Source: a phage
Sequence record: OR896157.1
DNA length: 64,000 bases
Reading direction: 5' to 3' (one strand)
Shown: positions 1,487 through 53,179 of the stretch, piece after piece
Layout: each line of letters opens with the position of its first letter
Position numbering within the stretch: the first letter of the stretch is position 1
The notes under the pieces: model-generated
Seen by the model: the letters and a program-made list of their open reading frames with translations, nothing else
What the model was told of the DNA's origin: nothing
The model's database searches: none
Program-made: the position numbers and the translations under genes

Positions 1487-4195
1487 TTAGAAATCAAACA
1501 TATTGTCTAAAGACGCTTTTTCTTCATAGTCTAATCCAGAAGCTTCTGACATACCAGCAAGTGGCTTAACGAAAGACTTTTGGAACAGAGTCGTATAGTC
1601 CAACCAAGCCAGAACATCTTGACGAATTTCCTGCGGAAGTTCAGTACCTGATGGCCAGGCGATACACTTGTCACCGAATGGGTTACCCTGACGAAGTGGA
1701 AGAACCATCACCTTGTTACCCTCGAGAATCGGAGTGACAGAGAATCCTGCCGTTGCACGATTATAAGTCAGTGCACCACGAACGTGATATGGACATTTCA
1801 GACCAGGGAAACCATTATCGTCATATTTACCAATGTCATTACAAGTTTTAACTTCTGCAATAACTTTGTAGTCCAGCTGACGATATTCCTTCTCAAACTG
1901 TTTGTAGTATTCTTGCAGTGATTCTTCGCCTTCTTGAACCATACGACGAATACTTTCTTCCAGTGCTTTCTGAACTGCTTTTGGCGTAGAAGACTGCTGA
2001 GTTTCCATGCCCATAATCTTCAAGTGTGGTTCAGCATAACGCTTATCTTCCATGTCGTAAACGTTCAGTGCATAACGTTTCTTAGCTTTCCAGAATCCAC
2101 CACAACCTTTTGAACCAAGCGGCGGACATGAAATAGCTTCTCGGTCCATGTGCATAAGATGTTCACGGTTATTGAAATATTCGCACAGTTCACGATAAGC
2201 AGTATCAATCATCGGTTCCATTTTCTTCTTACCGAATTGGTTCATAAATTCAACCACTTCGTCAGTCGTTTTGAAACGTTCAAGACCTACTTTTTCAATA
2301 ACTTTGTCAACAGAAACGTAGATTGAGTCAGTATCACCTGCTGCGATGAAATCAAATCCTTCAGTTCCACACACTTTATTCAGATACTCGTTAACTTTAC
2401 GAGCAATCCAACGAATACCTACTTGACCAAACAGTGTAATAGCAGATGCGTTACGAAGGTCATAATAACGGAAGTAGATGTTACCCAAAGCACCATAAAG
2501 ACTGTTGATAAGAATCTTACGGTTCAACTGGTTTGTGTTTGCTAGAATAGCAGCAGCTTCACATCGAGCCAGCATAGTTTCCAACACCAACTTCGTGTAC
2601 TTATTCAGTGATGCTTTCTGTTCGTCAGTGTACTGAGTGTAACGAGTTTCATCTGGAGTATCAATGTCACCGAATACGCCAGCTGCCAGAACTTTCTTAA
2701 TTTCTTCTGCGTTACGTTCTTCTGCGAACATCTTTTTCTTCCAATCTTTACGCTGGAAGAATACCTTAGCGATTTCTACTGGGATGACACCTTCAATATC
2801 TTTACGATACATCCAACCGTTCGGTGAGCAAGAATACTCGTCACTTGGACGTGGTGCAGTCTTATTGATATAAGCTTCAATATCATAAAGTTTGAATTGA
2901 CCAACAATAGTTTCCGGAGAAATATTCACCTGACGAATGATACTCGGATACAGAGATGTTAAGTCAAAACTCATGATGTACTTACGAGCGCATGCTAATG
3001 GTTCAAATACATATGCACCTGGATAACTTTGCTTGATATGACGCTTACCTTGAGGAACAACTTTGTTCTGTTCTTTCAGGGAGTTAAAGATAATTGCGTC
3101 CCAAGTTTTAATCGGAGACATTACACCACCAAACGGCATCTTGGCATAATAAGACATACTAAGTGCCAGGTCAATGAATCCACGAACTCGGTCAATACCA
3201 CCTACGGACTCAACGTCCATAATGTTATAGCTAATGTATCGTTGGTGATTTGTTTCACGAAGTTTGTTAATTGGACCATCGTATGGCAACTTACCACGTT
3301 TAGTCTCGTATAGAGCGATGTAGTCCAAGTTATAAGTTGGTTGGTTCGTGAATGAATACTTCTTGTACAAATCCATGTAATCCAGAATTGTTACACCATC
3401 AATACTGAATACTTCTTTTTCACCGTACATGTTCTGAATGAGTTTTGAATTCACTCGATTGATTGGAGAGAATCGTTTCATTGAACGTTCACCCAATACA
3501 TGCTTAACACGGTTCATGATGTATGGAATATCGAAGCCTTCAATGTTCCAACCCGTGAAGATTGCTGGACGCTTTTGTTCCCAGAGATTGATATATTCCA
3601 GAAGAAGTTCTTTCTCTGAATGGAAAGGCATGTACACTACACGGTCGAGAATATGTTGTGGAACTTCGTCTCCACCTTCTTTATCACTTCGTGCAGCTAA
3701 CTTCGCGTCCCATTCTGAAACTGAGCCATACAGAGAATCTAACAAATCGAAAACGTAGAACTTATCATCGATTGAATCATAATGAGTGATTGCATCGATT
3801 TCGTACATAGCTTTCATTGGGTCTGGGAATTTATCACCTGTAACTTCGATGTCACAGTTCGCAACACGAATGAATTTCTTGTCATAAACAATTTCAGAAC
3901 CATAAGTGTCGGAGATATAAGCGAGTTTGAAGTCATCCATACCCATGGCTTCAAGACCGATATCTTCCATACGACGAATCCAATCACGAGCATCTTTCAT
4001 GGTTGGGAATGTGTTTTTGATACATGGTTTCCCATAGATATCAAAGAACTTTGTCTTCACACCTTGTTGAGCATGAGAAAACATAGTTGGAGAATATTCA
4101 ACTCGTCGTTGACGTTCTACACCATTGGAGTCAATATAACGTTCAATGATGTCATTACCTGCGGTTTCAATAGAGATATAAAATTCTTGTGCCAT
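1487..4195 (-). CDS. 43: DNA polymerase (T4 gp43, family B)
   Basis: 902-aa ORF collinear with remembered T4 gp43; exonuclease and polymerase motifs (DIE, YGDTDS, KILINSLYGALG). Confidence 0.97.
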   Translation of the reverse strand: MAQEFYISIETAGNDIIERYIDSNGVERQRRVEYSPTMFSHAQQGVKTKFFDIYGKPCIKNTFPTMKDARDWIRRMEDIGLEAMGMDDFKLAYISDTYGSEIVYDKKFIRVANCDIEVTGDKFPDPMKAMYEIDAITHYDSIDDKFYVFDLLDSLYGSVSEWDAKLAARSDKEGGDEVPQHILDRVVYMPFHSEKELLLEYINLWEQKRPAIFTGWNIEGFDIPYIMNRVKHVLGERSMKRFSPINRVNSKLIQNMYGEKEVFSIDGVTILDYMDLYKKYSFTNQPTYNLDYIALYETKRGKLPYDGPINKLRETNHQRYISYNIMDVESVGGIDRVRGFIDLALSMSYYAKMPFGGVMSPIKTWDAIIFNSLKEQNKVVPQGKRHIKQSYPGAYVFEPLACARKYIMSFDLTSLYPSIIRQVNISPETIVGQFKLYDIEAYINKTAPRPSDEYSCSPNGWMYRKDIEGVIPVEIAKVFFQRKDWKKKMFAEERNAEEIKKVLAAGVFGDIDTPDETRYTQYTDEQKASLNKYTKLVLETMLARCEAAAILANTNQLNRKILINSLYGALGNIYFRYYDLRNASAITLFGQVGIRWIARKVNEYLNKVCGTEGFDFIAAGDTDSIYVSVDKVIEKVGLERFKTTDEVVEFMNQFGKKKMEPMIDTAYRELCEYFNNREHLMHMDREAISCPPLGSKGCGGFWKAKKRYALNVYDMEDKRYAEPHLKIMGMETQQSSTPKAVQKALEESIRRMVQEGEESLQEYYKQFEKEYRQLDYKVIAEVKTCNDIGKYDDNGFPGLKCPYHVRGALTYNRATAGFSVTPILEGNKVMVLPLRQGNPFGDKCIAWPSGTELPQEIRQDVLAWLDYTTLFQKSFVKPLAGMSEASGLDYEEKASLDNMFDF

Positions 4196-4217: not shown

Positions 4218-4235
4218 AGACCGAGTGATTGGTCT
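4218..4235 (-). promoter_or_regulatory. gp43 translational operator-like hairpin (5-bp stem, 8-nt loop) just upstream of the gene 43 Shine-Dalgarno
   Basis: minus-strand AGACC-AAUCACUC-GGUCU followed by AUAGGAAAAACUAAGGAAACUC-AUG; same architecture as the T4 gene 43 operator. Confidence 0.5.
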
Positions 4236-4246
4236 TTGGTATGTCT

Positions 4247-4271
4247 ATTATACTCCGCTCTGCTGATAGCA
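4247..4271 (-). promoter_or_regulatory. candidate MotA-type middle promoter for gene 43
   Basis: minus-strand TGCTA (MotA-box-like) then 14 nt then TATAAT. Confidence 0.35.
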
Positions 4272-4272
4272 G

Positions 4273-4292
4273 AAAGGGCCCGAAGGCCCTTT
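4273..4292 (-). terminator. GC hairpin AAAGGGCC-UUCG-GGCCCUUU (UUCG tetraloop); copy 1 of 4
   Basis: perfect palindrome GGGCCCGAAGGCCC flanked by A3/T3; lies between regA-distal small ORF and gene 43 leader. Confidence 0.5.
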
Positions 4293-4294
4293 AA

Positions 4295-4456
4295 TTAAAG
4301 CGTAATTTCTTCATACTGAATTACATCATTTTCGTCTTTGTATGGCAGAGTAATCACTGTTCCTTCTGGATAAAGAGGAGTGCCATCTGACGAGAACTGA
4401 CTTTTAAGTGAAGCAATTTGACGAGCTAGTTGTTCTTGTGGAGTACCTTCAAACAT
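4295..4456 (-). CDS. hypothetical small protein (53 aa), start overlaps regA stop (TAATG)
   Basis: ORF in track trimmed to ATG sharing A with regA TAA stop; no T4 counterpart recalled. Confidence 0.35.
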   Translation of the reverse strand: MFEGTPQEQLARQIASLKSQFSSDGTPLYPEGTVITLPYKDENDVIQYEEITL

Positions 4457-6342: not shown

Positions 6343-6401
6343 AATTTCCTCATATTGAATTAATCAAATCAGTGGATGGTCCGAAGACCATCCTATCACA
6401 A

Positions 6402-9408: not shown

Positions 9409-10427
9409 TGATTCTGAGCCTCAACATAAAGAGCTTGTGCAAATTTTTTCAATGCAGCATTATCAGTTGGAGATAAGTCTTCCAATGCATCAATATATTC
9501 TGACATCAAATCTAATAAGCTTTTAACTTCGATATCTTCTTCGTCATCAGATTCAACTGAGTTGTCAATCTTAGAAACCATACGAAGCTCGTGAACTACT
9601 TTTTCGAGTTCAGTTTCAAACTTCGTGATGTCTTTATCAACATCAGTGACAATTACTCGGACTGAAAGATTTTTGTAGTCGTTGTAATCAATCTTACCTG
9701 TAAATGGATATTGAAGTCTTACATGCCAAGTGGTTTCGTTTGGCACAAAATCCATACTTTCCGTTGCGGTATCGAAAATCCAGAATCCGCGAGGGTCGTT
9801 CTCGTCACCTGCTGTAAGGGTCCAGGGAGTGCCGATATACTTAACATTGGCAGCAGAGGATATAGTATGGAAATGCCCTGACCACACTTGCTTATATGAC
9901 TTAAGGAAATCTGGCTCGAGACCATGAGATTTTAAACCCTTGTAGTAATAGAAGCCATTAAGCTCCCAGTGTCCAATACAATACTCTGCAGATGATTCTT
10001 TAACATGCTTCATAATAGAAGCTACGTTTTCATCACAAAGCCATGGAATTAGGTCGATTAAGCATCCATCAAAATCAACAGTAGTAGGCACATCATAAAT
10101 TTTGATGTGGTCATGTTTGCCCAATACTTCTGTGATAGCGTTAGGATGAATTTTATTCTTATAATGCATATCGTGGTTTCCGATGATTGTATGCATCGTA
10201 ATCCCAGCTTCTGCTAGCATATCAACTATTTCACGAGCGAATTCCATCGTCTTGTGAGTAATAGCTTTACGTACGTCAAAAATATCTCCATACTGAATCC
10301 ACACGGTAATTCCATGCTTCTTCGAGTACTCAATTTTTTGACGAATACCATCACGTTGAATTTCTTGAAGCCAAGGGTCATCACCCTTTACGCCCAGATG
10401 CCAGTCACCTGTGTGAAGAATTTTCAT
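9405..10427 (-). CDS. 47: recombination endonuclease subunit gp47 (SbcD/Mre11-like phosphoesterase)
   Basis: 340-aa ORF; calcineurin-like motifs (GDWH, GDIFD, GNHD). Confidence 0.9.
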   Translation of the reverse strand: MKILHTGDWHLGVKGDDPWLQEIQRDGIRQKIEYSKKHGITVWIQYGDIFDVRKAITHKTMEFAREIVDMLAEAGITMHTIIGNHDMHYKNKIHPNAITEVLGKHDHIKIYDVPTTVDFDGCLIDLIPWLCDENVASIMKHVKESSAEYCIGHWELNGFYYYKGLKSHGLEPDFLKSYKQVWSGHFHTISSAANVKYIGTPWTLTAGDENDPRGFWIFDTATESMDFVPNETTWHVRLQYPFTGKIDYNDYKNLSVRVIVTDVDKDITKFETELEKVVHELRMVSKIDNSVESDDEEDIEVKSLLDLMSEYIDALEDLSPTDNAALKKFAQALYVEAQNQ

Positions 10428-10542
10428 TTCTTTTTCCTCAATTTAAGACGGCGATGTGGAAGTTTTATTTTAATCGCAGATGTATGTTCTCTTTTACCTG
10501 ATATTTGAATCCAGTTAATTTTCATATTTCACCTCAAAGAGA

Positions 10543-10566
10543 TTATATTCTATACTCCAGAAAGCA
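10543..10566 (-). promoter_or_regulatory. candidate MotA-type middle promoter upstream of 47/46
   Basis: minus-strand TGCTTT box, 12-nt spacer, TATAAT. Confidence 0.4.
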
Positions 10567-10567
10567 G

Positions 10568-10587
10568 AAAGGGCCCGAAGGCCCTTT
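10568..10587 (-). terminator. GC hairpin AAAGGGCC-UUCG-GGCCCUUU; copy 2 of 4
   Basis: identical palindrome GGGCCCGAAGGCCC; downstream of ORF 10586-10774. Confidence 0.5.
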
Positions 10588-10774
10588 AAATTTTACTGTA
10601 TGTGATAGTTACTTCGGCTTTTGCTTTATCATATGACATCTTGAACCGCCTCATCATTTCAGTCTTGCCGTTATGAATCTTTGCATAATCAATAGCTCTT
10701 TCTAAAGCTTCAGCCGAATAAACAGTTCCGTTGCGGGATACTACAGCAGCTTTTAATATTACAGCTTCCACCAT
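10586..10774 (-). CDS. hypothetical protein
   Basis: 62-aa ORF in 47-55 interval. Confidence 0.4.
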   Translation of the reverse strand: MVEAVILKAAVVSRNGTVYSAEALERAIDYAKIHNGKTEMMRRFKMSYDKAKAEVTITYSKI

Positions 10775-13570: not shown

Positions 13571-13597
13571 GTTACTCTCCTTGGTTGATATAAGAGT

Positions 13598-26560: not shown

Positions 26561-26589
26561 TTTTGTTCTCCTTTGGTTTTGATAGTGCT

Positions 26590-26982: not shown

Positions 26983-27030
26983 CACTTTTTGAAAACTTTC
27001 TTCAAAAACAACAAAACCTCCCGAAGGAGG

Positions 27031-27291
27031 TTATTTTGAGTGTTTTTCTAGCTGACGTTCAGCAAACAGCTTTGGCTGCATTAACAACCAACTTAAGATA
27101 CGCCAGATGACTTGTATGACACCGACAGGTAGCCATAATATAATACTAAACAAGTAATTAAAAGGTGTCTCTATGAACCCTCGTTTAACGAGAGCGTTTG
27201 TGATGAGCCACCCGACGGCTAGATAAACCAATACAATAAAGACGGGCATAATCCACCATAGTTGAGCCAAAAGTAAAGTAACCATAATCAC
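27031..27291 (-). CDS. hypothetical membrane protein
   Basis: 86-aa ORF, two hydrophobic helices. Confidence 0.5.
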   Translation of the reverse strand: MIMVTLLLAQLWWIMPVFIVLVYLAVGWLITNALVKRGFIETPFNYLFSIILWLPVGVIQVIWRILSWLLMQPKLFAERQLEKHSK

Positions 27292-28298
27292 CTGTAGTAA
27301 GAGTTGTGGTTCGCCAGATAAACTTCTTCAAGGAACTTGTCCCAGAATGTCATGTCAACTTTATCAGGCATACCGTTTTTAGAAGCGATGATGCTTTGAC
27401 GTTCAACTTCATCTACACAGTTTTCTAACCACTCTTGAACTTCTTTGAATGGAATAGTGCCGGCTTTAACTTTCTTGATGAACTCAGCATCTTTAAGCGG
27501 ATAAACCAAATCACCGGTTGTGTAGATTTCCTGGAGCTGAAGACCACCACGAAGAGCATGAGACAGAGCTTTCCAGTCTACACCTTCGTTAGCTTCTGCT
27601 TTACGAGCACGTTCACCGTATTCGTTCCAGAGCTTAGTAAGACTGTATTTCATTTCGGCAACAGTGATTGTTGTCTGGAATTTACGACCAAGCACGTTGT
27701 AGAACTTCTGAACGCCAGATTTGTGGTCAACAAAATCAGTCCACTCAAGGAACTCTGAAGTTGGAAGCAGATGAGCAATATCAGCAACTTTCCAACGAAC
27801 ATTGTGAGCTTTATCTTTTGGACGGTCTTCGTATTTCCATTCTGGATAAGGCTCTAATACTTCAAGAACTTTACGAAGTTCAGCTAAACGAGAACCTTTG
27901 ACACCATACTTAGCTGCTTGCTTACGAACATAACCAAGATAAGCTTTCATATCGGTGGTGTAGAAACGCCAGCGGTTGTCTTGGATAAATTTCCAGACAT
28001 CAGGCAGGTCAGATTTAACAATCAGATTAGCAGGAGTATGAAGCATATCAAGAGCAACAGTTTCTCCTGACTGAGCGAGTTCCAACCAATACTTGAGAGA
28101 ATAGAGTTCATGGTCAACGTCATCGTGAGAATTCTTTGTTGAAGTGTTGTTAGTATTCATATTAGTATGGTTCATTGCACGACCCATAAGAATATCTTTT
28201 GGGTGTGGAACGAAGATTTCTTTGAAGTCCGTGTCACTTTCTGGTGTTGACGTACCGTAAAGATGGCTACCGAAGTAGCCTTTCATAACTGTTTTCAT
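27288..28298 (-). CDS. nucleotidyltransferase-fold protein (Pol-beta superfamily motif GS-x9-DxD)
   Basis: 336-aa ORF; N-terminal FGSHLYGTSTPESDTDF; helical C-terminal domain. Confidence 0.5.
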   Translation of the reverse strand: MKTVMKGYFGSHLYGTSTPESDTDFKEIFVPHPKDILMGRAMNHTNMNTNNTSTKNSHDDVDHELYSLKYWLELAQSGETVALDMLHTPANLIVKSDLPDVWKFIQDNRWRFYTTDMKAYLGYVRKQAAKYGVKGSRLAELRKVLEVLEPYPEWKYEDRPKDKAHNVRWKVADIAHLLPTSEFLEWTDFVDHKSGVQKFYNVLGRKFQTTITVAEMKYSLTKLWNEYGERARKAEANEGVDWKALSHALRGGLQLQEIYTTGDLVYPLKDAEFIKKVKAGTIPFKEVQEWLENCVDEVERQSIIASKNGMPDKVDMTFWDKFLEEVYLANHNSYYR

Positions 28299-35930: not shown

Positions 35931-35950
35931 TCTCCTTTGTTGATAGGGCT

Positions 35951-35980
35951 ATAGTATCATAGCCCTTGGAGAAAGTAAAT
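35951..35980 (-). promoter_or_regulatory. T4-type early promoter (ATTTAC-N18-TACTAT) within palindrome GGGCTATAGTATCATAGCCC
   Basis: minus-strand motifs upstream of regB; 27-nt block identical to 53138-53164. Confidence 0.55.
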
Positions 35981-36865: not shown

Positions 36866-37102
36866 TTATGGGTATTGAATTTCTTCGTCAGTCTCTTTAT
36901 CATACTCACGAATTTTGATTGGTTCATTAATTCCGTAGCCACTTACAGTAAGACCAGTTTTAGCGTCTTCCCACTGTTTGGTTTCTTCATTCCACACACC
37001 GTTAGCATGCGCTTCCATTAAATCCTGTTCGCCTTGGTTTGAAAACCAGCCGCAGAAAGATTCAACCAGGTGGTCGGGGATGTCGATAATAATTTGCGCC
37101 AT
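36866..37102 (-). CDS. hypothetical acidic protein
   Basis: 78-aa ORF. Confidence 0.45.
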   Translation of the reverse strand: MAQIIIDIPDHLVESFCGWFSNQGEQDLMEAHANGVWNEETKQWEDAKTGLTVSGYGINEPIKIREYDKETDEEIQYP

Positions 37103-37437
37103 GTTGGCTCCAAAGAAATGACCTTGCGGTCGTAAGTAATTAAGCTTGAAGTTTTAATGCCTTTGCATGGGCCAGAGATAAACTCTACTTCAAACCATGG
37201 ATGCTCATTCATCAGACCCACATCTGGCGAAGTGCAGAGGAACAACGAGCCTTTAAAAGGCCCATCTAAAAATCGATACAGCTTTGGCTCAAGAACTGCC
37301 CCATCTGAAAATTTGATATGCAGAATATTAATCAAAGATTCTACATTACATTTTCCAGTAGAACGCAAAAAGCGGATATATTCACCTGTAGTCATTCTAA
37401 GGGCCCGAAGGCCCTTATTAAAATTTTCTTTCATCAT
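37018..37437 (-). CDS. hypothetical protein (start ambiguous)
   Basis: 139-aa ORF; ATGATGA coupling start at 37437 has SD, but a GGGCCCGAAGGCCC hairpin lies in codons 8-12; alternative ATG at 37395. Confidence 0.4.
   Translation of the reverse strand: MMKENFNKGLRALRMTTGEYIRFLRSTGKCNVESLINILHIKFSDGAVLEPKLYRFLDGPFKGSLFLCTSPDVGLMNEHPWFEVEFISGPCKGIKTSSLITYDRKVISLEPTWRKLLSTSPTTWLNLSAAGFQTKANRI
37398..37417 (-). terminator. GC hairpin GGGCC-UUCG-GGCCC; copy 3 of 4
   Basis: identical palindrome; inside or just upstream of ORF 37018-37437 start. Confidence 0.45.
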
Positions 37438-41038: not shown

Positions 41039-41413
41039 TTATTTCCTCGCTTTCCGGCAGTTGTCAATGAAACCTTCAAATCGTTCAGCTTTACCAAGCT
41101 TTGACACTATACTGTTTCTTCGTAAGCCAATTAAAGTTTGGGCAATCACATTGACAAACTCACCTATCAACATAATGATTATTGGTAACATTCCCCAACC
41201 AAAGCATATGAATACAGCAATCGCTCCAGCAGAATTAGCTCTTTCTTCTTTTGGAAGCTCTGTAATACCATACCAACCCCAACACGCAATAATTGCATAC
41301 AGTGACAATCCTATGACCCAACAAAACTTTTCATTCCTGGTCAAAATGTATCTGACCTTGGTTGAGAATGAATCTGTTTTAGCAATTTTAGCTTTAAGTT
41401 CATTTGAATTCAT
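41039..41413 (-). CDS. small 2-TM membrane protein, paralog 4 (C-terminal GFIDNCRK)
   Basis: 124-aa ORF; two TM helices; FIxxCR tail. Confidence 0.5.
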   Translation of the reverse strand: MNSNELKAKIAKTDSFSTKVRYILTRNEKFCWVIGLSLYAIIACWGWYGITELPKEERANSAGAIAVFICFGWGMLPIIIMLIGEFVNVIAQTLIGLRRNSIVSKLGKAERFEGFIDNCRKARK

Positions 41414-41425
41414 TTTATTTTCCTC

Positions 41426-41445
41426 ATAGGGCCCGAAGGCCCTTT
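41426..41445 (-). terminator. GC hairpin GGGCC-UUCG-GGCCC; copy 4 of 4
   Basis: identical palindrome directly upstream of the SD of ORF 41039-41413. Confidence 0.5.
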
Positions 41446-41446
41446 A

Positions 41447-42364
41447 TCATTTGAACGGACGAATCATATCAAAGTTTTCTTTAAAGCGTTTGACATAATC
41501 AGTCTTTCCAAGTTTCTTATGCATTGCAACTATCTTGTGGTAGTTTTCCCATGCATATTCGCGGAACCAACCAGATGTAATAGAAGTACAAACTTTTTCC
41601 AAAGCGTACATAAATGAACCAGTAGGGTCCGGGTTAAAGTTATTTGGAATTTGATGACGTTCCAAAGCAAGTACGCAAGTTTCTTCATATACACCCGCAA
41701 GTTTAATTTCTTCAGGCAGAGAATCAAATTTCTCTTTTGAAGTCATTACTTCAGAACCGTCTTTCATATAGAAAGTGTAAGCAGGACGGCCTGCTAAGGC
41801 TACTGCTTCATGAATTGAGTCATGGTCGTAGATGTAAAAATCATCTTTGAAGAAAGAATCTTTATCTACATCCAGATTAGGATGAGAATATGCTAATGTC
41901 TCTTTCTGACGCAGTTCGGAAATCTTTTTAAGACTTTCGTCCAAAACAATTCCTTTATTACGCAAGAAACGAATATGATGCATAGTCTTTTGGAAGAAAC
42001 GAGTGTTCTTCTTGAAGCGATGAGACAGTTTAATTGCTAAACACATCTCAGGAGTTGCCCAGTACATCTGAGACAGCGCATCGTAGCAGTCACGGAACAG
42101 CGCATAATTTGCAAGCATTTCAGATGAAGTGTTTTCATCATATTCAAAAATGTATGCTTCAAAATAAGTCTCACGACCGTTGTGCATGCATTTGAAAGCT
42201 TGTACATTAGGAGATTGAACTTCAACCTCTGTGCCGTTCATACGGTTTTTGAAATGAAGCCATTCGCCTGGAGACGCAATGAAGTCCCAATCAGAGTTCT
42301 TAACATCACTATAATCAATGAGACCATGGTGATGTAGTGCTCGAGAACCAATAACCAGCAACAT
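41447..42364 (-). CDS. hypothetical protein (305 aa)
   Basis: long ORF preceded by early promoter at 42393-42422. Confidence 0.55.
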   Translation of the reverse strand: MLLVIGSRALHHHGLIDYSDVKNSDWDFIASPGEWLHFKNRMNGTEVEVQSPNVQAFKCMHNGRETYFEAYIFEYDENTSSEMLANYALFRDCYDALSQMYWATPEMCLAIKLSHRFKKNTRFFQKTMHHIRFLRNKGIVLDESLKKISELRQKETLAYSHPNLDVDKDSFFKDDFYIYDHDSIHEAVALAGRPAYTFYMKDGSEVMTSKEKFDSLPEEIKLAGVYEETCVLALERHQIPNNFNPDPTGSFMYALEKVCTSITSGWFREYAWENYHKIVAMHKKLGKTDYVKRFKENFDMIRPFK

Positions 42365-46329: not shown

Positions 46330-46585
46330 TTATTGTTGTATTTATATGCAACAACACCCCGTCCGAAGACAGGGCGTAAGAATCGACAGCACCACCTACT
46401 GGCAGATGGCCTGCAGAAGTTCATTCCCAGCGACTCGGAGGCATCAGTCTCGCCCCTGGGAATATAGCGTCGTGGAGGTGTCACTTTGCAGGTGATTAAC
46501 AACCGGTGGCTCCGTAGAACCGTTGCGGCAAGGGCTAACCTTCTCTTCTAACACGACGTCTTCATACGAGAGCTGCAACTCTCTG
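46330..46585 (-). ncRNA. GC-rich structured non-coding island (candidate ncRNA)
   Basis: ~250 nt far more GC-rich than flanks; minus-strand CCCUGUC-UUCG-GACGGGG hairpin at 46353-46370; reading frames through it give R/P/C/G-rich junk. Confidence 0.3.
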
Positions 46586-46788: not shown

Positions 46789-46803
46789 TGTGTTTTCCTC
46801 ATT

Positions 46804-46879
46804 TGGTGCCGGTTAACGGATTCGAACCGCTGACCCTCTCATTACAAATGAGCTGCTCTACCAACTGAGCTAAACCGGC
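46804..46879 (-). tRNA. tRNA-Thr (anticodon UGU)
   Basis: manual fold: acceptor GCCGGUU/AACCGGC, D GCUC..GAGC, anticodon loop UUUGUAA, T-loop GGUUCGAAUCC, CCA encoded. Confidence 0.8.
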
Positions 46880-46880
46880 T

Positions 46881-46965
46881 TGGTGCATCAAGAGGGATTC
46901 GAACCCTCAATCCTTTCGGCGGGGCATTTTAAGTGCCCTGTGTATACCAGTTCCACCATTGATGC
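46881..46965 (-). tRNA. tRNA-Leu (anticodon UAA), class II
   Basis: acceptor GCAUCAA/UUGAUGC, anticodon loop CUUAAAA, 13-nt variable arm, T-arm GAGGG-UUCGAAU-CCCUC. Confidence 0.8.
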
Positions 46966-46971
46966 GAAATT

Positions 46972-47056
46972 TGGAGCTAGGAGTGAGATTCGAACTCACG
47001 AAGGGATACCCGGCGGATTTGCAATCCGCTGCCTTTGGCCACTCAGCAACCCTAGC
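46972..47056 (-). tRNA. tRNA with class-II architecture and anticodon GCA (Cys-type)
   Basis: acceptor GCUAGGG/UCCUAGC, anticodon stem-loop GCGGA-UUGCAAA-UCCGC, 13-nt variable arm CGGGUAUCCCUUC; assignment tentative. Confidence 0.5.
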
Positions 47057-47060
47057 AAAT

Positions 47061-47138
47061 TGGTCGAGGTAGAGGGATTCGAACCCGTCGACCTGTGGAT
47101 TAGAAGTCCACTGCTCTATCCAGCTGAGCTATACCCCG
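47061..47138 (-). tRNA. tRNA-Arg (anticodon UCU)
   Basis: acceptor CGGGGUA/UACCUCG, D GCUC..GAGC, anticodon loop CUUCUAA; T-stem has only 3 clean pairs. Confidence 0.7.
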
Positions 47139-47142
47139 AGTG

Positions 47143-47268
47143 TGTTCAGACAGGACTCGAACCTGTAAGCATGTTCTTGCGGCGTTTTACCACCGTCGTC
47201 AGCATATGATTCAATATGCGAACTCAAAAGGTGTTGGACCCCTTGTCTACCAATTCCAGCACTGAACA
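47143..47268 (-). ncRNA. 126-nt tRNA-like stable RNA candidate (possibly rnaC/rnaD-type)
   Basis: 7-bp acceptor-like helix UGUUCAG/CUGAACA and canonical T-arm ACAGG-UUCGAGU-CCUGU enclose ~93 nt with D-loop-like AAUUGGUAGA but no canonical anticodon arm. Confidence 0.4.
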
Positions 47269-47278
47269 ACTTTATTTA

Positions 47279-47503
47279 TTACATATCAACTTGAGTAAAC
47301 CAGTTGATTTTGAAATACTCATCAAAATGAAGAGCAGGTTCAACTTGAGTATCTTCCTCAAGAAGAATTAAATTCTTTCTTACAATCGGGTCAAGATGAG
47401 TTGTGTTTAAGCAGCTATCATGCCAATATGTAAGAACTCGATTTGATTCAGTATCAACGAGATAACGAACATTCATATCAGGATGTCGGTACAGATTAAT
47501 CAT
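47279..47503 (-). CDS. hypothetical protein
   Basis: 74-aa ORF. Confidence 0.45.
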   Translation of the reverse strand: MINLYRHPDMNVRYLVDTESNRVLTYWHDSCLNTTHLDPIVRKNLILLEEDTQVEPALHFDEYFKINWFTQVDM

Positions 47504-47506
47504 AAT

Positions 47507-47956
47507 CTATTTCTCTTGAAGCATTTTGCGTAAACGATAGAGCTGATTACAAAATTCCTTTTCAGTCAAAACTGTTTCAGAGATTTTGTTCTTGCCCATA
47601 CTGTGGGTTAATGTTGCGTTACGAGTAGCAATCAATGCTTTTTGGAATCCAGTGTTTTGAGCAAGTGCGTCATAAGCTCCAGTTAAAAGATTCTGGTATG
47701 CTTCAGATGCTCGATGAATAGGAACACCCTTCCAATAAAGTGTTTGAGTAGGCCACCAACGCTTCTTCTTACCTTTGAACTTTGCTGCCTTTCCAACCAA
47801 TGTGCAAACATGAGCTTGCATTTCAGGGTTAGAAAATTTGAGGGATTGTAAAAATCCCTCCATTGAAGCACATTCTACACCATCATAAACGAAAGCATGT
47901 GGTGCAAAGTTACTTAAAGCACAAGAAGGATATGAACTTCCAGAGCCAATGTCCAT
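47507..47956 (-). CDS. NADAR/YbiA-like protein (DUF1768), candidate ADP-ribose glycohydrolase
   Basis: 149-aa ORF; SNFAPHAFVYDGVECASMEGFLQSLKF resembles remembered E. coli YbiA core (SNFA..DG..SEHYFQAQKF); downstream W...ALxAT pattern also shared. Confidence 0.5.
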   Translation of the reverse strand: MDIGSGSSYPSCALSNFAPHAFVYDGVECASMEGFLQSLKFSNPEMQAHVCTLVGKAAKFKGKKKRWWPTQTLYWKGVPIHRASEAYQNLLTGAYDALAQNTGFQKALIATRNATLTHSMGKNKISETVLTEKEFCNQLYRLRKMLQEK

Positions 47957-48187
47957 TTAATTACCGTGAGATATTCTAGAAGGTTTCTTACCAAAATAAT
48001 ATTCATATGAGCCATCTAAACGACCTGCTTTAGTGCGGCAATATGAATCCCATTTCTTATAATGCCGCCATTCATCATTGTATCTTGGATGACGGTCAGC
48101 GATTAAAATCTCTAATGGCCAACCAGGCGCAAAGGAACGGAGCCGTTCGACCTTTCTAATGTATCTTTTCTTTAAGATTTTCTTCAT
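47957..48187 (-). CDS. hypothetical basic protein
   Basis: 76-aa ORF. Confidence 0.45.
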   Translation of the reverse strand: MKKILKKRYIRKVERLRSFAPGWPLEILIADRHPRYNDEWRHYKKWDSYCRTKAGRLDGSYEYYFGKKPSRISHGN

Positions 48188-48405
48188 ATAGATTCCGACA
48201 TTACGTGAGTAGTTCTCTTTCTGATTGTAAATTGAGTTAATTCATCAACTTCACCACAACGCCAAGCGTCATCTTCAGTTTCAAAACCAAGAGCCTCGAA
48301 TAAGTTGCCTAAACGCCAACCTTCGTCAAACTCGGGGTCTCCTGAAAAATAGTAATAGTAATCGCCAGTTACTAAATCTTGAATTACAAAATCAAACTTT
48401 TCCAT
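48184..48405 (-). CDS. hypothetical acidic protein
   Basis: 73-aa ORF. Confidence 0.45.
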   Translation of the reverse strand: MEKFDFVIQDLVTGDYYYYFSGDPEFDEGWRLGNLFEALGFETEDDAWRCGEVDELTQFTIRKRTTHVMSESI

Positions 48406-48902
48406 CAGATACTTACCACAGTAATAGCTTCAGGAGCTTTAGGAATAACGATATCTTCTTCAATGTAGAAGAGCTTAAATGTTTCAGCTACACGCATAAA
48501 GTCAATATCATAACCGACTGGAGTTCCAATCAATTCTTGAATCTTATCCATCACTTTATACTGAACTTGATAGAAATCTTCAAGACGAGCATCGAATTCA
48601 TCTTCAGTATAATCACCTTCTGGGATTACAAAGCCAAGCACTTCTGAACAGAACTCTGGAGTGATTTCTTCATTTTCAACACAGTATTCAAAGAAAGCAT
48701 CACCGGAATAATCTTCATTACCCATTCCATTAGGGTCTGAATTATCAGATGCAAAACATTTAGCAACGGCACACCAACCTGAAACGTGTCTAGCATTTAC
48801 AGCATAAATCACATTCTCTTGATAATCATCGCCATCGTTTTCCCATGATACACATGATACTGCATAACCTTTAGGGATAGTTTGACCAAAGCGGAGTTCC
48901 AT
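48405..48902 (-). CDS. hypothetical acidic protein
   Basis: 165-aa ORF. Confidence 0.5.
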   Translation of the reverse strand: MELRFGQTIPKGYAVSCVSWENDGDDYQENVIYAVNARHVSGWCAVAKCFASDNSDPNGMGNEDYSGDAFFEYCVENEEITPEFCSEVLGFVIPEGDYTEDEFDARLEDFYQVQYKVMDKIQELIGTPVGYDIDFMRVAETFKLFYIEEDIVIPKAPEAITVVSI

Positions 48903-48912
48903 AATATTTCCT

Positions 48913-49287
48913 TCAATTAAATGGTGGAAGAGATTTCTTATATAAATCTATCATCATTCGCCATTTAGCAATTACTTTAGAATACGGAGATTTATGAGAG
49001 AATTGCGAAATGTCAGAATAATCAAGTTCAGGCAGTGGAGTTAAATGACCCATCAGCTCACGAGGAAATTGATGAAAACAATTCATCAAATCTTTGTAAA
49101 CATAATCAAGTAAGTCTTTAACATCAAAGAATTGGGTATTTAGTCCTTCTTTGGAATAACGATATTTCAAAAATTTCCAATGACCGGACTTAGAATCTTG
49201 AGTAAACGCGTAATCACTATGAAGCATGATATCGCGAACAAAATCTTCAGAAAAGAAGATGGAGTGAGTGCAACCATAATAAATCAT
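48913..49287 (-). CDS. hypothetical protein (124 aa)
   Basis: track ORF trimmed to ATG 49287 (GAGGA SD) so it no longer overlaps tRNA-Met. Confidence 0.5.
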   Translation of the reverse strand: MIYYGCTHSIFFSEDFVRDIMLHSDYAFTQDSKSGHWKFLKYRYSKEGLNTQFFDVKDLLDYVYKDLMNCFHQFPRELMGHLTPLPELDYSDISQFSHKSPYSKVIAKWRMMIDLYKKSLPPFN

Positions 49288-49305
49288 AATATTTTCCTCA
49301 GAATT

Positions 49306-49382
49306 TGGTGACCCCAGCAGGACTCGAACCTGCAACCTAGCGATTATGAGTCGCGTGCTCTAACCAATTGAGCTATAGGGCC
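49306..49382 (-). tRNA. tRNA-Met (anticodon CAU), elongator-type
   Basis: acceptor GGCCCUA/UGGGGUC, D GCUC..GAGC, anticodon loop CUCAUAA, T-arm GCAGG-UUCGAGU-CCUGC, CCA encoded. Confidence 0.8.
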
Positions 49383-49409
49383 AAAGTCCTCCTAAGAGGA
49401 CCGAGGGTA

Positions 49410-49634
49410 TTATTCAACCATGAAATCTGCTACTTCATCAAAGTCGTTATTGATGACAACAGTAAATGGCAGAGCTTCATCACTTGTTTTGATAGTCAGC
49501 TTAACAAAACCATCAACAGTTTCAACCAAACCAACGATTTTATCTGAACGCACTACAGCACGAGCTACGTCAACAATTTTACCAGTCATTGCAAATGTAG
49601 CGATTTGGTTAACTTCAACAACGATACGTTTCAT
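49410..49634 (-). CDS. hypothetical protein
   Basis: 74-aa ORF. Confidence 0.45.
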   Translation of the reverse strand: MKRIVVEVNQIATFAMTGKIVDVARAVVRSDKIVGLVETVDGFVKLTIKTSDEALPFTVVINNDFDEVADFMVE

Positions 49635-49695
49635 TCTTTTTCCTTAGTGGTTTTGATAAGGTAATTATATACTGAATTTTTAAAGCGTTTTCACT

Positions 49696-49729
49696 AAAAA
49701 GCCCCGTAACAGATTTCTCTGCTCGGGGC
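49696..49729 (-). terminator. intrinsic terminator at the distal end of the tRNA array
   Basis: minus-strand GCCCCG...CGGGGC stem followed by UUUUUAGUG. Confidence 0.55.
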
Positions 49730-49735
49730 GTCATT

Positions 49736-49810
49736 TGGTGGGAAGTGTTGGAATCGAACCAACCTCTCATGCTCTTCAGGCACGCGCTAATCCATCTCAG
49801 CTAACTTCCC
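49736..49810 (-). tRNA. tRNA-Phe (anticodon GAA)
   Basis: acceptor GGGAAGU/ACUUCCC, anticodon stem-loop CGUGC-CUGAAGA-GCAUG, T-arm GUUGG-UUCGAUU-CCAAC. Confidence 0.65.
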
Positions 49811-49813
49811 GAT

Positions 49814-49890
49814 TGGTCGGTGCGGCAGGATTTGAACCTGCGACCCCTTGGTCCCAAACCAAGTGCTCTACCAAACTGAGCTACACACCG
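49814..49890 (-). tRNA. tRNA-Pro (anticodon UGG)
   Basis: acceptor CGGUGUG/CGCACCG, D GCUC..GAGC, anticodon loop UUUGGGA, T-arm GCAGG-UUCAAAU-CCUGC. Confidence 0.85.
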
Positions 49891-49896
49891 TTAATT

Positions 49897-49971
49897 TGGA
49901 GCATCCAGAGAGAATCGAACTCTCATCTACTGGGTGGAAGCCAGTCATAATAGCCGCTATACGATGGATGC
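49897..49971 (-). tRNA. tRNA-Gly (anticodon UCC)
   Basis: acceptor GCAUCCA/UGGAUGC, anticodon stem-loop ACUGG-CUUCCAC-CCAGU, T-arm GAGAG-UUCGAUU-CUCUC. Confidence 0.8.
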
Positions 49972-49978
49972 AATTTGT

Positions 49979-50070
49979 ACGGAACGCCTGGATTCGAACC
50001 AGGTTAAATTGCGATTGACGTCACAATTTATCTTATGAAGGCCATGCCTCTACCATATCCGAACGTTCCG
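49979..50070 (-). tRNA. atypical tRNA-like gene / possible pseudo-tRNA with CAU-type anticodon loop (UUCAUAA) and a 9-bp hairpin insertion
   Basis: perfect 7-bp acceptor CGGAACG/CGUUCCG and T-arm CCUGG-UUCGAAU-CCAGG, but weak D and anticodon stems and a 26-nt perfect hairpin before the T-arm. Confidence 0.35.
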
Positions 50071-50121
50071 TCAAAAACGCTACTCGGCTTACGGCTTAGG
50101 CAATTCCTCGAACCGATAATT

Positions 50122-50195
50122 TGGCAGGCCCCGTAGGAATCGAACCCACGTCACTGAGGTTGGAGCTCAGGATAATACCACTATACGAGAGACCT
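50122..50195 (-). tRNA. tRNA-Trp (anticodon CCA)
   Basis: acceptor AGGUCUC/GGGGCCU (two G-U), anticodon stem-loop CUGAG-CUCCAAC-CUCAG, T-loop UUCGAUU. Confidence 0.7.
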
Positions 50196-50199
50196 AAAA

Positions 50200-50293
50200 T
50201 GGAGGAAGCGGTGGGATTCGAACCCACGGACCGTATCACTACGGCCTCCGCATTTCAAGTGCGGTGCAATTAACCAGACTCTGCCACGCTTCC
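50200..50293 (-). tRNA. tRNA-Ser (anticodon UGA), class II
   Basis: acceptor GGAAGCG/CGCUUCC, anticodon stem-loop CCGCA-CUUGAAA-UGCGG, long variable arm, T-arm GUGGG-UUCGAAU-CCCAC. Confidence 0.85.
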
Positions 50294-50297
50294 GAAT

Positions 50298-50373
50298 TGG
50301 GGTGACCGATGGGAGTTGAACCCATGACTACGAGAATCACAATCTCGAGTTCTACCAACTGAACTACGGCCAC
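50298..50373 (-). tRNA. tRNA-His (anticodon GUG)
   Basis: acceptor GUGGCCG/CGGUCAC, D GUUC..GAAC, anticodon stem-loop CGAGA-UUGUGAU-UCUCG. Confidence 0.85.
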
Positions 50374-50587
50374 ATCAATATTCACTCCAGCAATCATGAT
50401 GCCTTCACACGAAATTGAGAGAAGAGTGATCAGTTCAACCCTTGTAGACGCGTCAAGTAAATATTGATGTGACAGCTTATTTAAGAAGAGTGAGAGTCCC
50501 AGTCTTGTACGGAGTAACCATTTATGCATTGGCAGCTATCGCGCGGTTCGCACTTCCGATAAATGGACTTACCGTTACACTCTAATT

Positions 50588-50662
50588 TGGCTGGACTATC
50601 TGGATTCGAACCAGAGATACCGGAGTCAAAGGCCGGTGACTTAACCGCTTGTCTATAGTCCA
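50588..50662 (-). tRNA. tRNA-Gln (anticodon UUG)
   Basis: acceptor UGGACUA/UAGUCCA, anticodon loop CUUUGAC, T-arm UCUGG-UUCGAAU-CCAGA. Confidence 0.8.
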
Positions 50663-50668
50663 ATTGTT

Positions 50669-50745
50669 TGGAGGCGGGTGATGGACTCGAACCATCGCGT
50701 AACGGGATATGAACCCGTCATTCTACCAACTGAAGTTAACCCGCA
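50669..50745 (-). tRNA. tRNA-Met (anticodon CAU), initiator-like features
   Basis: anticodon stem ACGGG/CCCGU with three consecutive G-C pairs next to loop UUCAUAU; position 1:72 mismatched; T-arm GAUGG-UUCGAGU-CCAUC. Confidence 0.65.
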
Positions 50746-50898
50746 TCTATCCGGATTCTTGAAGTACTAACAAGTAGCTTGATGTAGAACACGCTAAAGA
50801 TATAATCTTACGAATATAGAGCTTATTCCGTGGGAACAAACAGCTTCGTCCTCGGCATTATCTTACAGGACTCTGACTTATCTTCAAGAACTGCCTCG

Positions 50899-51363
50899 TT
50901 ATTTTATGAACTTATTTATGAATCGTCTAGCTTGAGTATGACTGACTCCAAGTTCATTTGCAAATTTTACTAATGCACCACGTTTTGTGAAATCAATAGA
51001 ATTATATAAATCTATTCTTAAAGCAATTTCATCTGCAGTGAATTTATGAGCATGATTTTCTGATATTTTTATTTTTGTTTCATCAGAATGATTATGTCCA
51101 GTAAAACCAGTAGATACGATTCTTCCATTTGCGCCAGCGTCTTTAGCATTTTGCGCATTAGTTGCGCAATAAATGTTATCCAAAGAATATGGTCCAACAT
51201 CTCCTTTACGACACATACAATAATTATCTGAGGCTCTACCGCGCAAATGATATTTGCCAGTAGCTTTCCACCATGATAGCCATTCATCAAATGTCAGTTT
51301 AAATTCAATACCTCTTGATTTAGCATGCACTTTTTGCATGCGATACTTTTCATAATCTTTCAT
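50899..51363 (-). CDS. putative freestanding homing endonuclease-like protein (nuclease-like N-half, HTH-like C-half) inside the tRNA array
   Basis: 154-aa ORF; N-terminal GIEFKLTFDEW...NYCMCRKGDVGPYSLDNIYCATNAQNAKD, C-terminal helix-turn-helix-like; T4 carries segB at the analogous place. Confidence 0.4.
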   Translation of the reverse strand: MKDYEKYRMQKVHAKSRGIEFKLTFDEWLSWWKATGKYHLRGRASDNYCMCRKGDVGPYSLDNIYCATNAQNAKDAGANGRIVSTGFTGHNHSDETKIKISENHAHKFTADEIALRIDLYNSIDFTKRGALVKFANELGVSHTQARRFINKFIK

Positions 51364-51377
51364 ATTACTCTCATATT

Positions 51378-51454
51378 TGGCAGTGCTGACGGGTTTCGAA
51401 CCCGCGATCTCTCCCGTGACAGGGGAGTGTCTTGACCATCTCGACTACAGCACT
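51378..51454 (-). tRNA. tRNA-Asp (anticodon GUC)
   Basis: acceptor AGUGCUG/CAGCACU, anticodon stem-loop CUCCC-CUGUCAC-GGGAG, T-loop UUCGAAA. Confidence 0.85.
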
Positions 51455-51699
51455 ATAAATTTACTTTCGTGAGTATGGGATTACCCTCAAGCCTTCCGGA
51501 AAGCTGAATAGGCGTTATTGGCTCTCATATACCCGTGCACAGATATAATCTTCATTAACGCAATAACTTCATCAATATACTCCGAAAGTAAACTTTCGGC
51601 GCCGTATTTAATTTTGACTGTGTAGTTATCGTTGAGGGAACTCACAGACAGGGATTAAAGTGCCGACGACTTATCAGAACGTCTTCTGACTTCTACATT

Positions 51700-51785
51700 T
51701 GGCGGGCCGTGCAGGTATCGAACCTGCCTAGTCATTTCTGACACGGATTAACAGTCCGTCGCTTACCCTCTCAGCCAACGACCCA
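51700..51785 (-). tRNA. tRNA with anticodon GUU (Asn-type) and a 15-nt variable arm
   Basis: acceptor GGGUCGU/ACGGCCC, anticodon stem-loop ACGGA-CUGUUAA-UCCGU, extra hairpin GUCA-GAAA-UGAC, T-arm GCAGG-UUCGAUA-CCUGC. Confidence 0.55.
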
Positions 51786-51789
51786 AATT

Positions 51790-51864
51790 TGGTTCTCCGT
51801 AAGAGAATTGAACTCTTCTTTCCGACGTGAAAGGCCGGCGTCCTAACCGATAGACGAACGGAGA
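51790..51864 (-). tRNA. tRNA-Glu (anticodon UUC)
   Basis: acceptor UCUCCGU/ACGGAGA, anticodon stem-loop CCGGC-CUUUCAC-GUCGG, T-arm AAGAG-UUCAAUU-CUCUU. Confidence 0.85.
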
Positions 51865-51865
51865 T

Positions 51866-51943
51866 TGGTAGGACGTGAGGGAGTTGAACCCATCGACATT
51901 CCGATTAAAAGTCGGATGCTCTAACCAACTGAGCTAACGTCCT
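51866..51943 (-). tRNA. tRNA-Lys (anticodon UUU)
   Basis: acceptor AGGACGU/ACGUCCU, D GCUC..GAGC, anticodon stem-loop UCCGA-CUUUUAA-UCGGA; T-stem only 3 clean pairs. Confidence 0.75.
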
Positions 51944-51981
51944 GTAGATATTTATAATAACAAAAATATCTTTAAGCAAAT

Positions 51982-52057
51982 TGGTGGGAATAACTGGGCT
52001 CGAACCAGTGACCTAACGATTATCGGTCGTTTGCTCTACCAACTGAGCTATATTCCC
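51982..52057 (-). tRNA. tRNA-Ile (anticodon GAU)
   Basis: acceptor GGGAAUA/UAUUCCC, D GCUC..GAGC, anticodon stem-loop AACGA-CCGAUAA-UCGUU (C at position 33). Confidence 0.7.
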
Positions 52058-52063
52058 TGAATT

Positions 52064-52151
52064 TGGTGGGGAGTGATGGAGTCGAACCACCCGAGTCGCA
52101 ATGACAACAGATTTACAGTCTGCACCGCTACCTCTACGGAATTAACTCCCC
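52064..52151 (-). tRNA. tRNA-Tyr (anticodon GUA), class II
   Basis: acceptor GGGGAGU/ACUCCCC, anticodon stem-loop GCAGA-CUGUAAA-UCUGU, long variable arm; 5 nt between acceptor and D-stem. Confidence 0.75.
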
Positions 52152-52156
52152 GAAAT

Positions 52157-52516
52157 TTATTTAAGAACTGTTGAGTTCATCGATTTAACCAAGAAAACTT
52201 GGTGCGGTGAACGAAGTGAACCTTCAATAGTGCGATGTTCTGGAAAATTGGTTGAAGTCTGAAAACCAGCTACACGGTAACCTTGCTCAGTCCATCCTAA
52301 AAGGATACCAACCATACAGCCAGAATATTTTCCGCTTTTATCCAAAGCTACAATATCACCAGGAGCAATTTCATTACCCATTGAATCAGGCTTAATCCAT
52401 TGTGGAGTAACCAGTTCTATAGGTATATTTATACCGCTTGAAAAGCTGTAATATTCGTCTGAACGTAAGCCCTGAATGCTTTTAAAGACTTTATGCCAAG
52501 TTTTGCTGATGCTCAT
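52157..52516 (-). CDS. hypothetical protein
   Basis: 119-aa ORF directly upstream of the tRNA array. Confidence 0.5.
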   Translation of the reverse strand: MSISKTWHKVFKSIQGLRSDEYYSFSSGINIPIELVTPQWIKPDSMGNEIAPGDIVALDKSGKYSGCMVGILLGWTEQGYRVAGFQTSTNFPEHRTIEGSLRSPHQVFLVKSMNSTVLK

Positions 52517-52995: not shown

Positions 52996-53149
52996 CGAGT
53001 GTAAGTACTACGCTACTGATGAGTTCAGAATTTGAAAGGAACGGCCATCCGAAGATTGAAGTTCCAAGTGCTCCCAGGGTTACTACAGTAAAGATGTTTC
53101 CGATGATTTCGCAACGTTTCATTTTTAATCTCCTTGTGTTGATAGGGCT

Positions 53150-53179
53150 ATAGTATCATAGCCCTCAAGGAAAGTAAAC
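53150..53179 (-). promoter_or_regulatory. T4-type early promoter (GTTTAC-N18-TACTAT) within palindrome GGGCTATAGTATCATAGCCC
   Basis: minus-strand motifs; 27-nt block identical to 35939-35965; positioned to transcribe the small ORFs and tRNA array. Confidence 0.55.

Follow-up and report, generated by a model that had tools for sequence, protein, structure and literature searches.

The window, by which we mean the whole 64,000-nt stretch of phage DNA that was analysed, belongs to a T4-like Karamvirus and is 95-97% identical to the Enterobacter phages EnC15, PG7 and myPSH1140, and to others. Its gene order is that of T4, running 43, regA, 62, 44, 45, 46 and 47, followed by regB, vs.4 to vs.8, denV, e, nudE and a cluster of tRNA genes; all of these, from gene 43 to nudE and including the tRNA cluster, lie on the minus strand, and the annotation of the relative EnC15 includes a MotA gene. 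The tRNA cluster (46800-52160) comprises 19 genes according to ARAGORN and 19 according to Rfam, the two lists not being the same: a 95-nt 'tRNA-Met' at 49977-50071 is called by ARAGORN only, and a tRNA at 52067-52151, where the annotation of EnC15 places tRNA-Tyr, by Rfam only.

Four exact copies of one palindromic 14-mer, GGGCCCGAAGGCCC on the plus strand, are found in the window at 4276-4289, 10571-10584, 37401-37414 and 41429-41442 (sites 1 to 4 below). The initial annotation had listed identical palindromes starting at 4276, 10571, 37401 and 41429, and all four are exact matches; 100 dinucleotide-preserving shuffles gave a mean count of 0.00 against the four observed, an expectation that rules out a chance origin, and the window contained no extra copy when up to two mismatches were allowed. 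With every local gene on the minus strand, the mRNA carries GGGCC-UUCG-GGCCC, with a UUCG loop closed by a C-G pair in each of the four copies, and the tetraloop that had been read into the minus-strand RNA is borne out. In RNA folding the expected hairpin was the minimum-free-energy structure in all four site contexts; the bare 14-mer folds at -9.6 kcal/mol, while flanking A/U pairs extend the stems to between 6 and 8 bp, giving hairpins of about -12 to -14 kcal/mol. An Rfam scan returned tRNA matches only, and the hairpins are covered by no family. The hairpins and the elements beside them are these:

4273..4292 (core 4276-4289), minus strand: site 1 hairpin, AAAGGGCC-UUCG-GGCCCUUU, an A/U-extended 8-bp stem
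4247..4271, minus strand: middle-promoter-like element of gene 43, TGCTATC (4265-4271), a 12-nt spacer and TATAAT (4247-4252)
4218-4235, minus strand: hairpin AGACC-AAUCACUC-GGUCU, between the -10 element of gene 43 and its Shine-Dalgarno
10568..10587 (core 10571-10584), minus strand: site 2 hairpin, AAAGGGCC-UUCG-GGCCCUUU, with the tail UUUCUGCUUUCU
10542..10566, minus strand: middle-promoter-like element of 47.1/47/46, TGCTTTC (10560-10566), a 12-nt spacer and TATAAT (10542-10547)
37398..37417 (core 37401-37414), minus strand: site 3 hairpin, UAAGGGCC-UUCG-GGCCCUUA, in frame within codons 7-13 of vs.7
41428..41443 (core 41429-41442), minus strand: site 4 hairpin, AGGGCC-UUCG-GGCCCU, 2 nt before GAGG

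Sites 1 and 2 are built on the same plan, and together form a 48-nt repeat that is 83% identical. Both hairpins lie within 0-2 nt of a stop codon: that of site 1 begins 2 nt past the TAA (4295-4297) with which a 65-aa ORF ends downstream of regA, and the stem of site 2 includes the AA of the TAA (10586-10588) that ends the upstream 62-aa ORF. Both run into UUUCUGCU, in which the U-tail is interrupted (5 U in 8); a terminator scan flagged site 2 as terminator-like, and the tail of site 1 is the same. The tail also contains the first part of the promoter-like element, TGCTATC within UUUCUGCU at site 1 and TGCTTTC within UUUCUGCUUUCU at site 2. Beyond TATAAT, site 1 continues with a hairpin of 5 bp and an 8-nt loop (4235-4218), AAGGA and the ATG of gene 43 at 4195, and site 2 with GAGG (10532-10535) and the ATG of 47.1 (10523-10525). 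The form and position of the hairpin at 4218-4235 are what we take to be those of the autogenous translational operator of T4 gp43, and an operator-like hairpin upstream of gene 43 is kept in nearly all of the T4-like loci retrieved. The succession of stem-loop, Mot box, 12 nt, -10 element, Shine-Dalgarno and ATG that defines the PmSL layout is present at sites 1 and 2 and absent from sites 3 and 4. A MotA box is located at -30, and the T4 gene 43-47 region shows strong MotA dependence (PMC6024815), a dependence that fits insulation of these genes from upstream transcription.

Two smaller observations concern these junctions. A small hairpin, CUGCU-AUC-AGCAG at 4257-4272 on the minus strand, stands right behind the site 1 hairpin and shares nucleotides with the MotA-box-like TGCTATC. 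Gene 47.1 (10424-10540 in the window) is missing from three other Karamvirus genomes, and the edges of this indel carry a repeated leader, gaggtgaaa-ATGAAA, which suggests deletion or insertion via short repeats.

The hairpins at sites 1 and 2 have counterparts in T4 itself. Between regA and gene 43, T4 has GGGGC-UUCG-GCCCC followed by TATAAT and the gp43 operator, and between a-gt and 47.1 it has AAAGGGC-UUCG-GCCCUUU followed by a MotA-box-like AGCTTTA and GATATAAT. Comparison was extended to T4-like loci on IMG/VR contigs that were retrieved through gp43 and gp47. At the gene-43 junction a hairpin of -9.7 kcal/mol or lower is found in 31 of 35 loci, against 6% of random 120-nt windows, and in many lineages, T4 included, the hairpin and a short T-run lead straight into the -10 element; at the gene-47 junction, the hairpin passes without a gap into a T-run and GCT(T/A)T in about 36 of 51 loci, with a -10 element thereafter. 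The stems themselves are diverse. At least 12 occur across the two junctions (GGGCC, GGGC, GGCC, GGGAC, GGACC, GGAGC(C), GGGAG(C), GGAAGC, GGAACUC and others), and the loops are mostly UUCG, with UCCG, GAAA, UACG and UUAG besides. Changes on both sides of the stem were counted at seven of seven positions, a count of pairs that is partly circular in that the best hairpin was chosen for each locus; the hairpins were anchored by hand, one row was misaligned by MAFFT, and the random-window control was added to this count. The presence of different stems at the same two places across genera means that structure is conserved here and sequence is not. Judged from these alignments, the hairpin and its promoter-adjacent position are ancient at sites 1 and 2, and the stem sequence is lineage-specific.

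Within Karamvirus the picture is one of constancy. All four sites are occupied in every genome that could be read there (three to six other genomes per site, including CC31, PG7 and EnC15), and these genomes keep the GGGCC stem at all sites, save for a G-U wobble at site 3 of CC31. The comparison across related phages that the initial annotation had called for thus divides the four copies into hairpins common to T4-like genera (sites 1 and 2) and hairpins that, on present genomes, are specific to Karamvirus (sites 3 and 4).

A conserved 305-aa ORF, which has an early-type promoter of its own (TTTACA-17-TATAGT, 42421-42393), ends in TGA-TAA (41444-41449), and site 4 comes immediately after. Downstream of the hairpin is GAGG (41422-41425), and after a further 8 nt a 124-aa ORF specific to Karamvirus begins with its ATG (41411-41413). 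A promoter or Shine-Dalgarno had been noted next to some of the copies, and both kinds of neighbour are present, the promoter-like elements after sites 1 and 2 and this GAGG-N8-ATG after site 4. All Karamvirus genomes checked have site 4 in identical form. Five other T4-like lineages were compared (Moonvirus, Mosigvirus, Kanagawavirus, Winklervirus and Shewanella phage Thanatos-1): their homology to the 305-aa ORF goes no further than the point where site 4 stands, the gene downstream is different in each of them, and no comparable G+C-rich stem-loop was found in them at that position. Neither a U-tract nor a promoter was found at site 4 or at site 3; these two have 2-3 U in the next 8 nt and were not called by the terminator scan on the sense strand. 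The lack of a U-tract makes a role in stability or insulation more plausible at both, and for site 4 we tentatively suggest an intercistronic stabiliser or insulator, placed just upstream of a Shine-Dalgarno. A processing site for RegB (GGAG) was considered and set aside, since the Shine-Dalgarno next to sites 2 and 4 is GAGG.

Site 3 is of another kind, being placed inside a gene. It encodes N-K-G-L-R-A-L, codons 7-13 of ORF 37018-37437, the vs.7 homologue, which starts with an ATG overlapping the stop of a vs.8-like gene (ATGA), and the earlier description of one copy among the early codons of an ORF is therefore accurate. The ATGA-coupled start is also present in T4 vs.7 and in a 68%-identical homologue, but both are without the 7-13 hairpin-containing codons of Karamvirus; a profile search for vs.7 homologues covered 11 loci and found no other lineage that bears the hairpin. 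Within Karamvirus the stem is kept, although the loop is UUUU in EnC15 and PG7 (Arg to Leu), and in CC31 a single GCC-to-GCU change is what produces the G-U wobble pair. Site 3 is the same hairpin in the 5' coding region of vs.7, of uncertain role. In PG7 there is one extra A just past the hairpin (GAACC against GACC), which breaks the vs.7 frame from the ATGA start; the PG7 record annotates a downstream TTG start for vs.7, and the extra A may be either a sequencing error or a true shift of the start.

The two Karamvirus-specific sites give some encouragement to the proposal, made in the initial annotation, of a short mobile palindrome, considered here as an element of the REP, MITE or RPE kind that inserts copies of itself even in frame within coding sequence. 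Sites 3 and 4 are additions, the 5' end of vs.7 looks, beside T4 and the 68%-identical homologue, as if 7-13 codons had been inserted in frame at site 3, and there are 11 identical copies across the EnC15 genome. Yet common flanks and target duplications are lacking in these 11 copies, as are terminal repeats other than the variable A/T extensions of the stem around the 14-nt core, and they have nothing in common beyond a stem-loop of 14-20 nt. Nor is there presence/absence polymorphism among the Karamvirus genomes readable at each site (three to six besides our own), the occupation of all four sites throughout the genus giving no sign of recent movement, while sites 1 and 2 are ancient and carry other stems in T4 and other genera. 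The 14-mer also recurs as an ordinary terminator stem in unrelated phages. Together with the strict link to the direction of transcription described below, which would be unexpected of an insertion element acting at the level of DNA, these points make a mobile palindrome very unlikely.

A count of the 14-mer across a whole genome, also proposed at the outset, was made in EnC15, whose complete genome (172,579 bp) was assembled from six annotated stretches. There are 11 copies; nine have UUCG on the minus strand and lie in minus-strand blocks, and two have it on the plus strand and lie in the plus-strand block of late genes. Of the C(UUCG)G hairpins whose stems have 5 bp or more, 24 of 24 are co-oriented with transcription (11 of 11 for the 14-mer), and 23 of the 24 are situated in short gaps between annotated genes. 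The window agrees, since all four 14-mers read UUCG on the transcribed strand and sites 1, 2 and 4 are intergenic. UUCG always being on the transcribed strand points to a role at the RNA level, for a palindrome that mattered only as DNA would show no such bias. Besides site 4, six of the EnC15 copies stand just before a Shine-Dalgarno. We do not claim that the T4 gene-39 hairpin (5381) is orthologous to the EnC15 copy at 5280, the gene order being different.

As a sequence, the 14-mer is generic. A scan of IMG/VR listed at least 120 matches, all on unrelated viral contigs, and among the matches listed the G+C content ranges from 0.28 to 0.71; in the same set, at least five T are found in the next 8 nt, taken in the UUCG orientation, in 52 of 123 cases, as against at least five A upstream in 11 of 123. 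A recurrent family of the form aataattaaTGT-GGGCCTTCGGGCCC-ACAtaaaattttaagga was also seen there in many low-GC viral contigs, in which the 14-mer is followed by a Shine-Dalgarno-like AAGGA instead of a T-run, a layout like that of site 4.

What requires explanation is the repeated use of a single stem within one genome. Four all-GC stems, GGGCC among them, tie at the top of the stability scale at -9.6 kcal/mol, and EnC15 uses GGGCC 11 times, GGGGC once and the other two not at all; the first 50 kb of T4 contain seven hairpins with seven different stems. A thermodynamic optimum is insufficient as the cause of this reuse, given the four-way tie. The 11-fold reuse of one stem in EnC15 and the in-frame copy in vs.7 go beyond textbook T4 biology.

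One way to account for such reuse is to suppose that some phage or host protein recognises the hairpin by its sequence, whether an RNA-binding regulator, a nuclease or an enzyme that binds or cuts DNA. This would predict what is seen in the 11 copies, whose stem and loop are exactly identical although three other stems are equally stable, and the loop at site 3 can become UUUU with the stem unchanged. Against this, stems vary freely between genera at the gene-43 and gene-47 sites while the structure is kept, which argues for recognition of structure over sequence. The contexts of the EnC15 copies are moreover mixed (promoter, Shine-Dalgarno, late promoter and coding), there is no Rfam family, and no candidate protein was identified. 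Of the explanations weighed here we hold this to be the most improbable.

A second way is suggested by the PeSL and PmSL cassettes of T4-like phages, which consist of a stem-loop and a promoter, and where termination by the stem-loop was seen with a lacZ reporter (PMC2839356, PMC4122927). Under the published model, stem-loops with or without a promoter act as recombination linkers, providing short homology for gene conversion and cassette exchange, and PeSL-mediated shuffling and mini-circles have been described (PMC2839356, PMC4122927). Linkers of this type would homogenise the stems within Karamvirus and put hairpins at the borders of variable ORFs, all of which is compatible with a function in RNA. 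Three of the four sites do coincide with borders of mosaicism or synteny. Over the 200 nt upstream of site 1, three Karamvirus contigs are 55-72% identical to the window, against 98-100% on the downstream side; site 2 keeps its cassette beside an unrelated upstream gene and the absence of 47.1 from three genomes; and at site 4 the homology shared with Moonvirus, Mosigvirus, Kanagawavirus, Winklervirus and Thanatos goes no further than the hairpin, and the downstream gene differs. The 11:1:0:0 use of four equally stable stems in EnC15, beside the seven stems of seven hairpins in T4, is of the kind expected. Still, any intergenic gap is a natural mosaic border, which makes the border evidence weak, and outside sites 1 and 2 the sequence shared is only 14-20 nt, which is short for homologous recombination, PeSLs being about 100 bp. 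Crossing-over between sites 1 and 2, moreover, would delete essential genes. That a recombination linker is the main evolutionary role of the conserved stem-loop seems to us rather unlikely overall, while lineage-specific homogenisation by gene conversion between cassettes, by analogy with the PeSL model, offers a plausible explanation of the stem reuse in particular.

A stronger form of the idea, to which we give less credence again, is that GGGCC-UUCG-GGCCC might be a self-propagating regulatory linker, which short-patch gene conversion or cassette exchange would have spread and homogenised over at least 11 Karamvirus junctions, in place of 11 independent convergences. Were this true, a spreading hairpin would have overwritten older stems at the gene-43 and gene-47 junctions and seeded new copies, including the in-frame insertion in vs.7. 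Both the reuse of the stem and the vs.7 copy are relevant to a proposal in the literature, by which the regulatory stem-loops of T4-type phages serve as recombination linkers as well.

Our essential contention is that the four copies are T4-type intercistronic C(UUCG)G hairpins with a Karamvirus stem, serving as terminator and promoter units at sites 1 and 2 and in stability or insulation at sites 3 and 4, a reading of the sequence to which we assign a probability of roughly three in four. The hairpins are real, functional-looking and of a well-known kind. According to Tuerk et al. (1988, PNAS 85:1364), as cited in PMC8948821, CUUCGG hairpins are plentiful in the intergenic regions of T4, and UUCG is frequent among T4 intergenic stem-loops and terminators (PMC1702504). 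The initial annotation had proposed a stereotyped RNA element acting as a terminator or as a determinant of stability or processing. The RNA element is upheld in so far as orientation is tied to transcription and a hairpin is kept with different stems at the gene-43 and gene-47 positions; a terminator would fit sites 1 and 2, which have a stop codon before them, a U-rich tail and a promoter-like element after them, and does not fit sites 3 and 4, which are without a U-tract.

In mechanistic terms, it is the minus-strand transcript that forms the hairpin. The hairpins of sites 1 and 2 would most likely act as intrinsic terminators, probably partial ones, and as a barrier to 3' exonucleases for the upstream transcripts, after which a MotA/AsiA-dependent middle promoter would restart transcription of gene 43 and of 47.1-47-46. 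These two sites could then be described as PmSL-type cassettes of terminator and middle promoter, orthologous to the regA-43 and a-gt-47.1 junctions of T4, and a terminator or attenuator that protects the 3' end and is joined to a MotA-type middle promoter seems to us a probable reading of both. At sites 3 and 4, the hairpin may block 3'-to-5' decay of the upstream cistron, or keep the adjacent Shine-Dalgarno unpaired, or both; ribosomes would be expected to read through that of site 3. The position of site 3 inside a reading frame speaks against a terminator or stabiliser there, being an unusual place for either. We infer termination, stabilisation and promoter activity from what was observed of the sequence, fold, orientation, orthology and conservation of the hairpins, and no Term-seq data or 3'-end map of a T4-like phage came up in a literature search. 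For annotation, the hairpins would have value as marks of transcription-unit and cistron boundaries in the Karamvirus genome, and two likely MotA-dependent promoters are located by them, one for the DNA polymerase gene and one for the 47/46 recombination nuclease genes.

Comparison with known systems places the hairpins closest to those of T4, with which they share a C-G-closed UUCG loop on a short G+C-rich stem, a position between genes, an orientation on the sense strand and abundance in T4-type genomes, sites 1 and 2 being positional orthologues. They differ in that the stem is GGGCC here and GGGGC or GGGC in T4, in the one copy that lies in a reading frame, and in the reuse of one stem 11 times by EnC15, where the T4 hairpins examined are all different. 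The PeSL and PmSL cassettes (Arbiol 2010, PMC2839356; Comeau 2014, PMC4122927) resemble sites 1 and 2 in having the stem-loop directly before promoter, Shine-Dalgarno and ATG, and in being repeated through a genome with a stem typical of the lineage (in nt-1, A3-4G3-loop-C3T3-4); PmSLs also have a TGCTT Mot box with a -10 element, and the cassettes occur next to indels and variable ORFs. Here, by contrast, the promoter part is confined to sites 1 and 2, sites 3 and 4 being bare stem-loops, and sites 1 and 2 flank core replication and recombination genes, not hyperplastic regions.

Rho-independent terminators share with sites 1 and 2 a stable G+C-rich hairpin after a stop codon and a U-rich tail, and the 14-mer with long T-runs is common in unrelated phages; the hairpins here depart from that type in their U-tracts, which sites 1 and 2 have in interrupted form and sites 3 and 4 lack. 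Stabilising hairpins of mRNA, such as the REP-type 3' stabilisers, are matched by the stable hairpin without a U-tract between cistrons at site 4 and in six EnC15 copies, but the longer imperfect palindromes, the clusters and the RAYT transposase of REP elements are all absent here. The CUUCGG leader hairpin 5' of T4 gene 32 is of the stabilising type, as cited in PMC8948821.

Other hairpins and repeats in the window deserve mention. On the minus strand, C(UUCG)G hairpins with other stems are found at 6374-6393, between genes 45 and 44 (stem GGAUGGUC), at 27015-27032 (stem AACCUCC, followed by UUGUUGUUUUU, a canonical terminator) and at 28265-28280 (stem GGCUAC, apparently within an ORF), and an imperfect one is found at about 46355-46375, near the tRNA cluster. 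A separate set of cassettes of about 42-47 nt, also on the minus strand, carries TTTAC-N17-TATAGT/TATACT, the T4 early-promoter type; these lie at 35938-35979 and 53137-53178, at 26577 and 26941, and at 13584, 26292 and 31396. Two of the copies are 90% identical, contain the palindrome AGGGCUAU-gauacu-AUAGCCCU and lie upstream of regB-like and ip7-like genes, and these repeated cassettes look like early promoter/stem-loop cassettes of the PeSL type.
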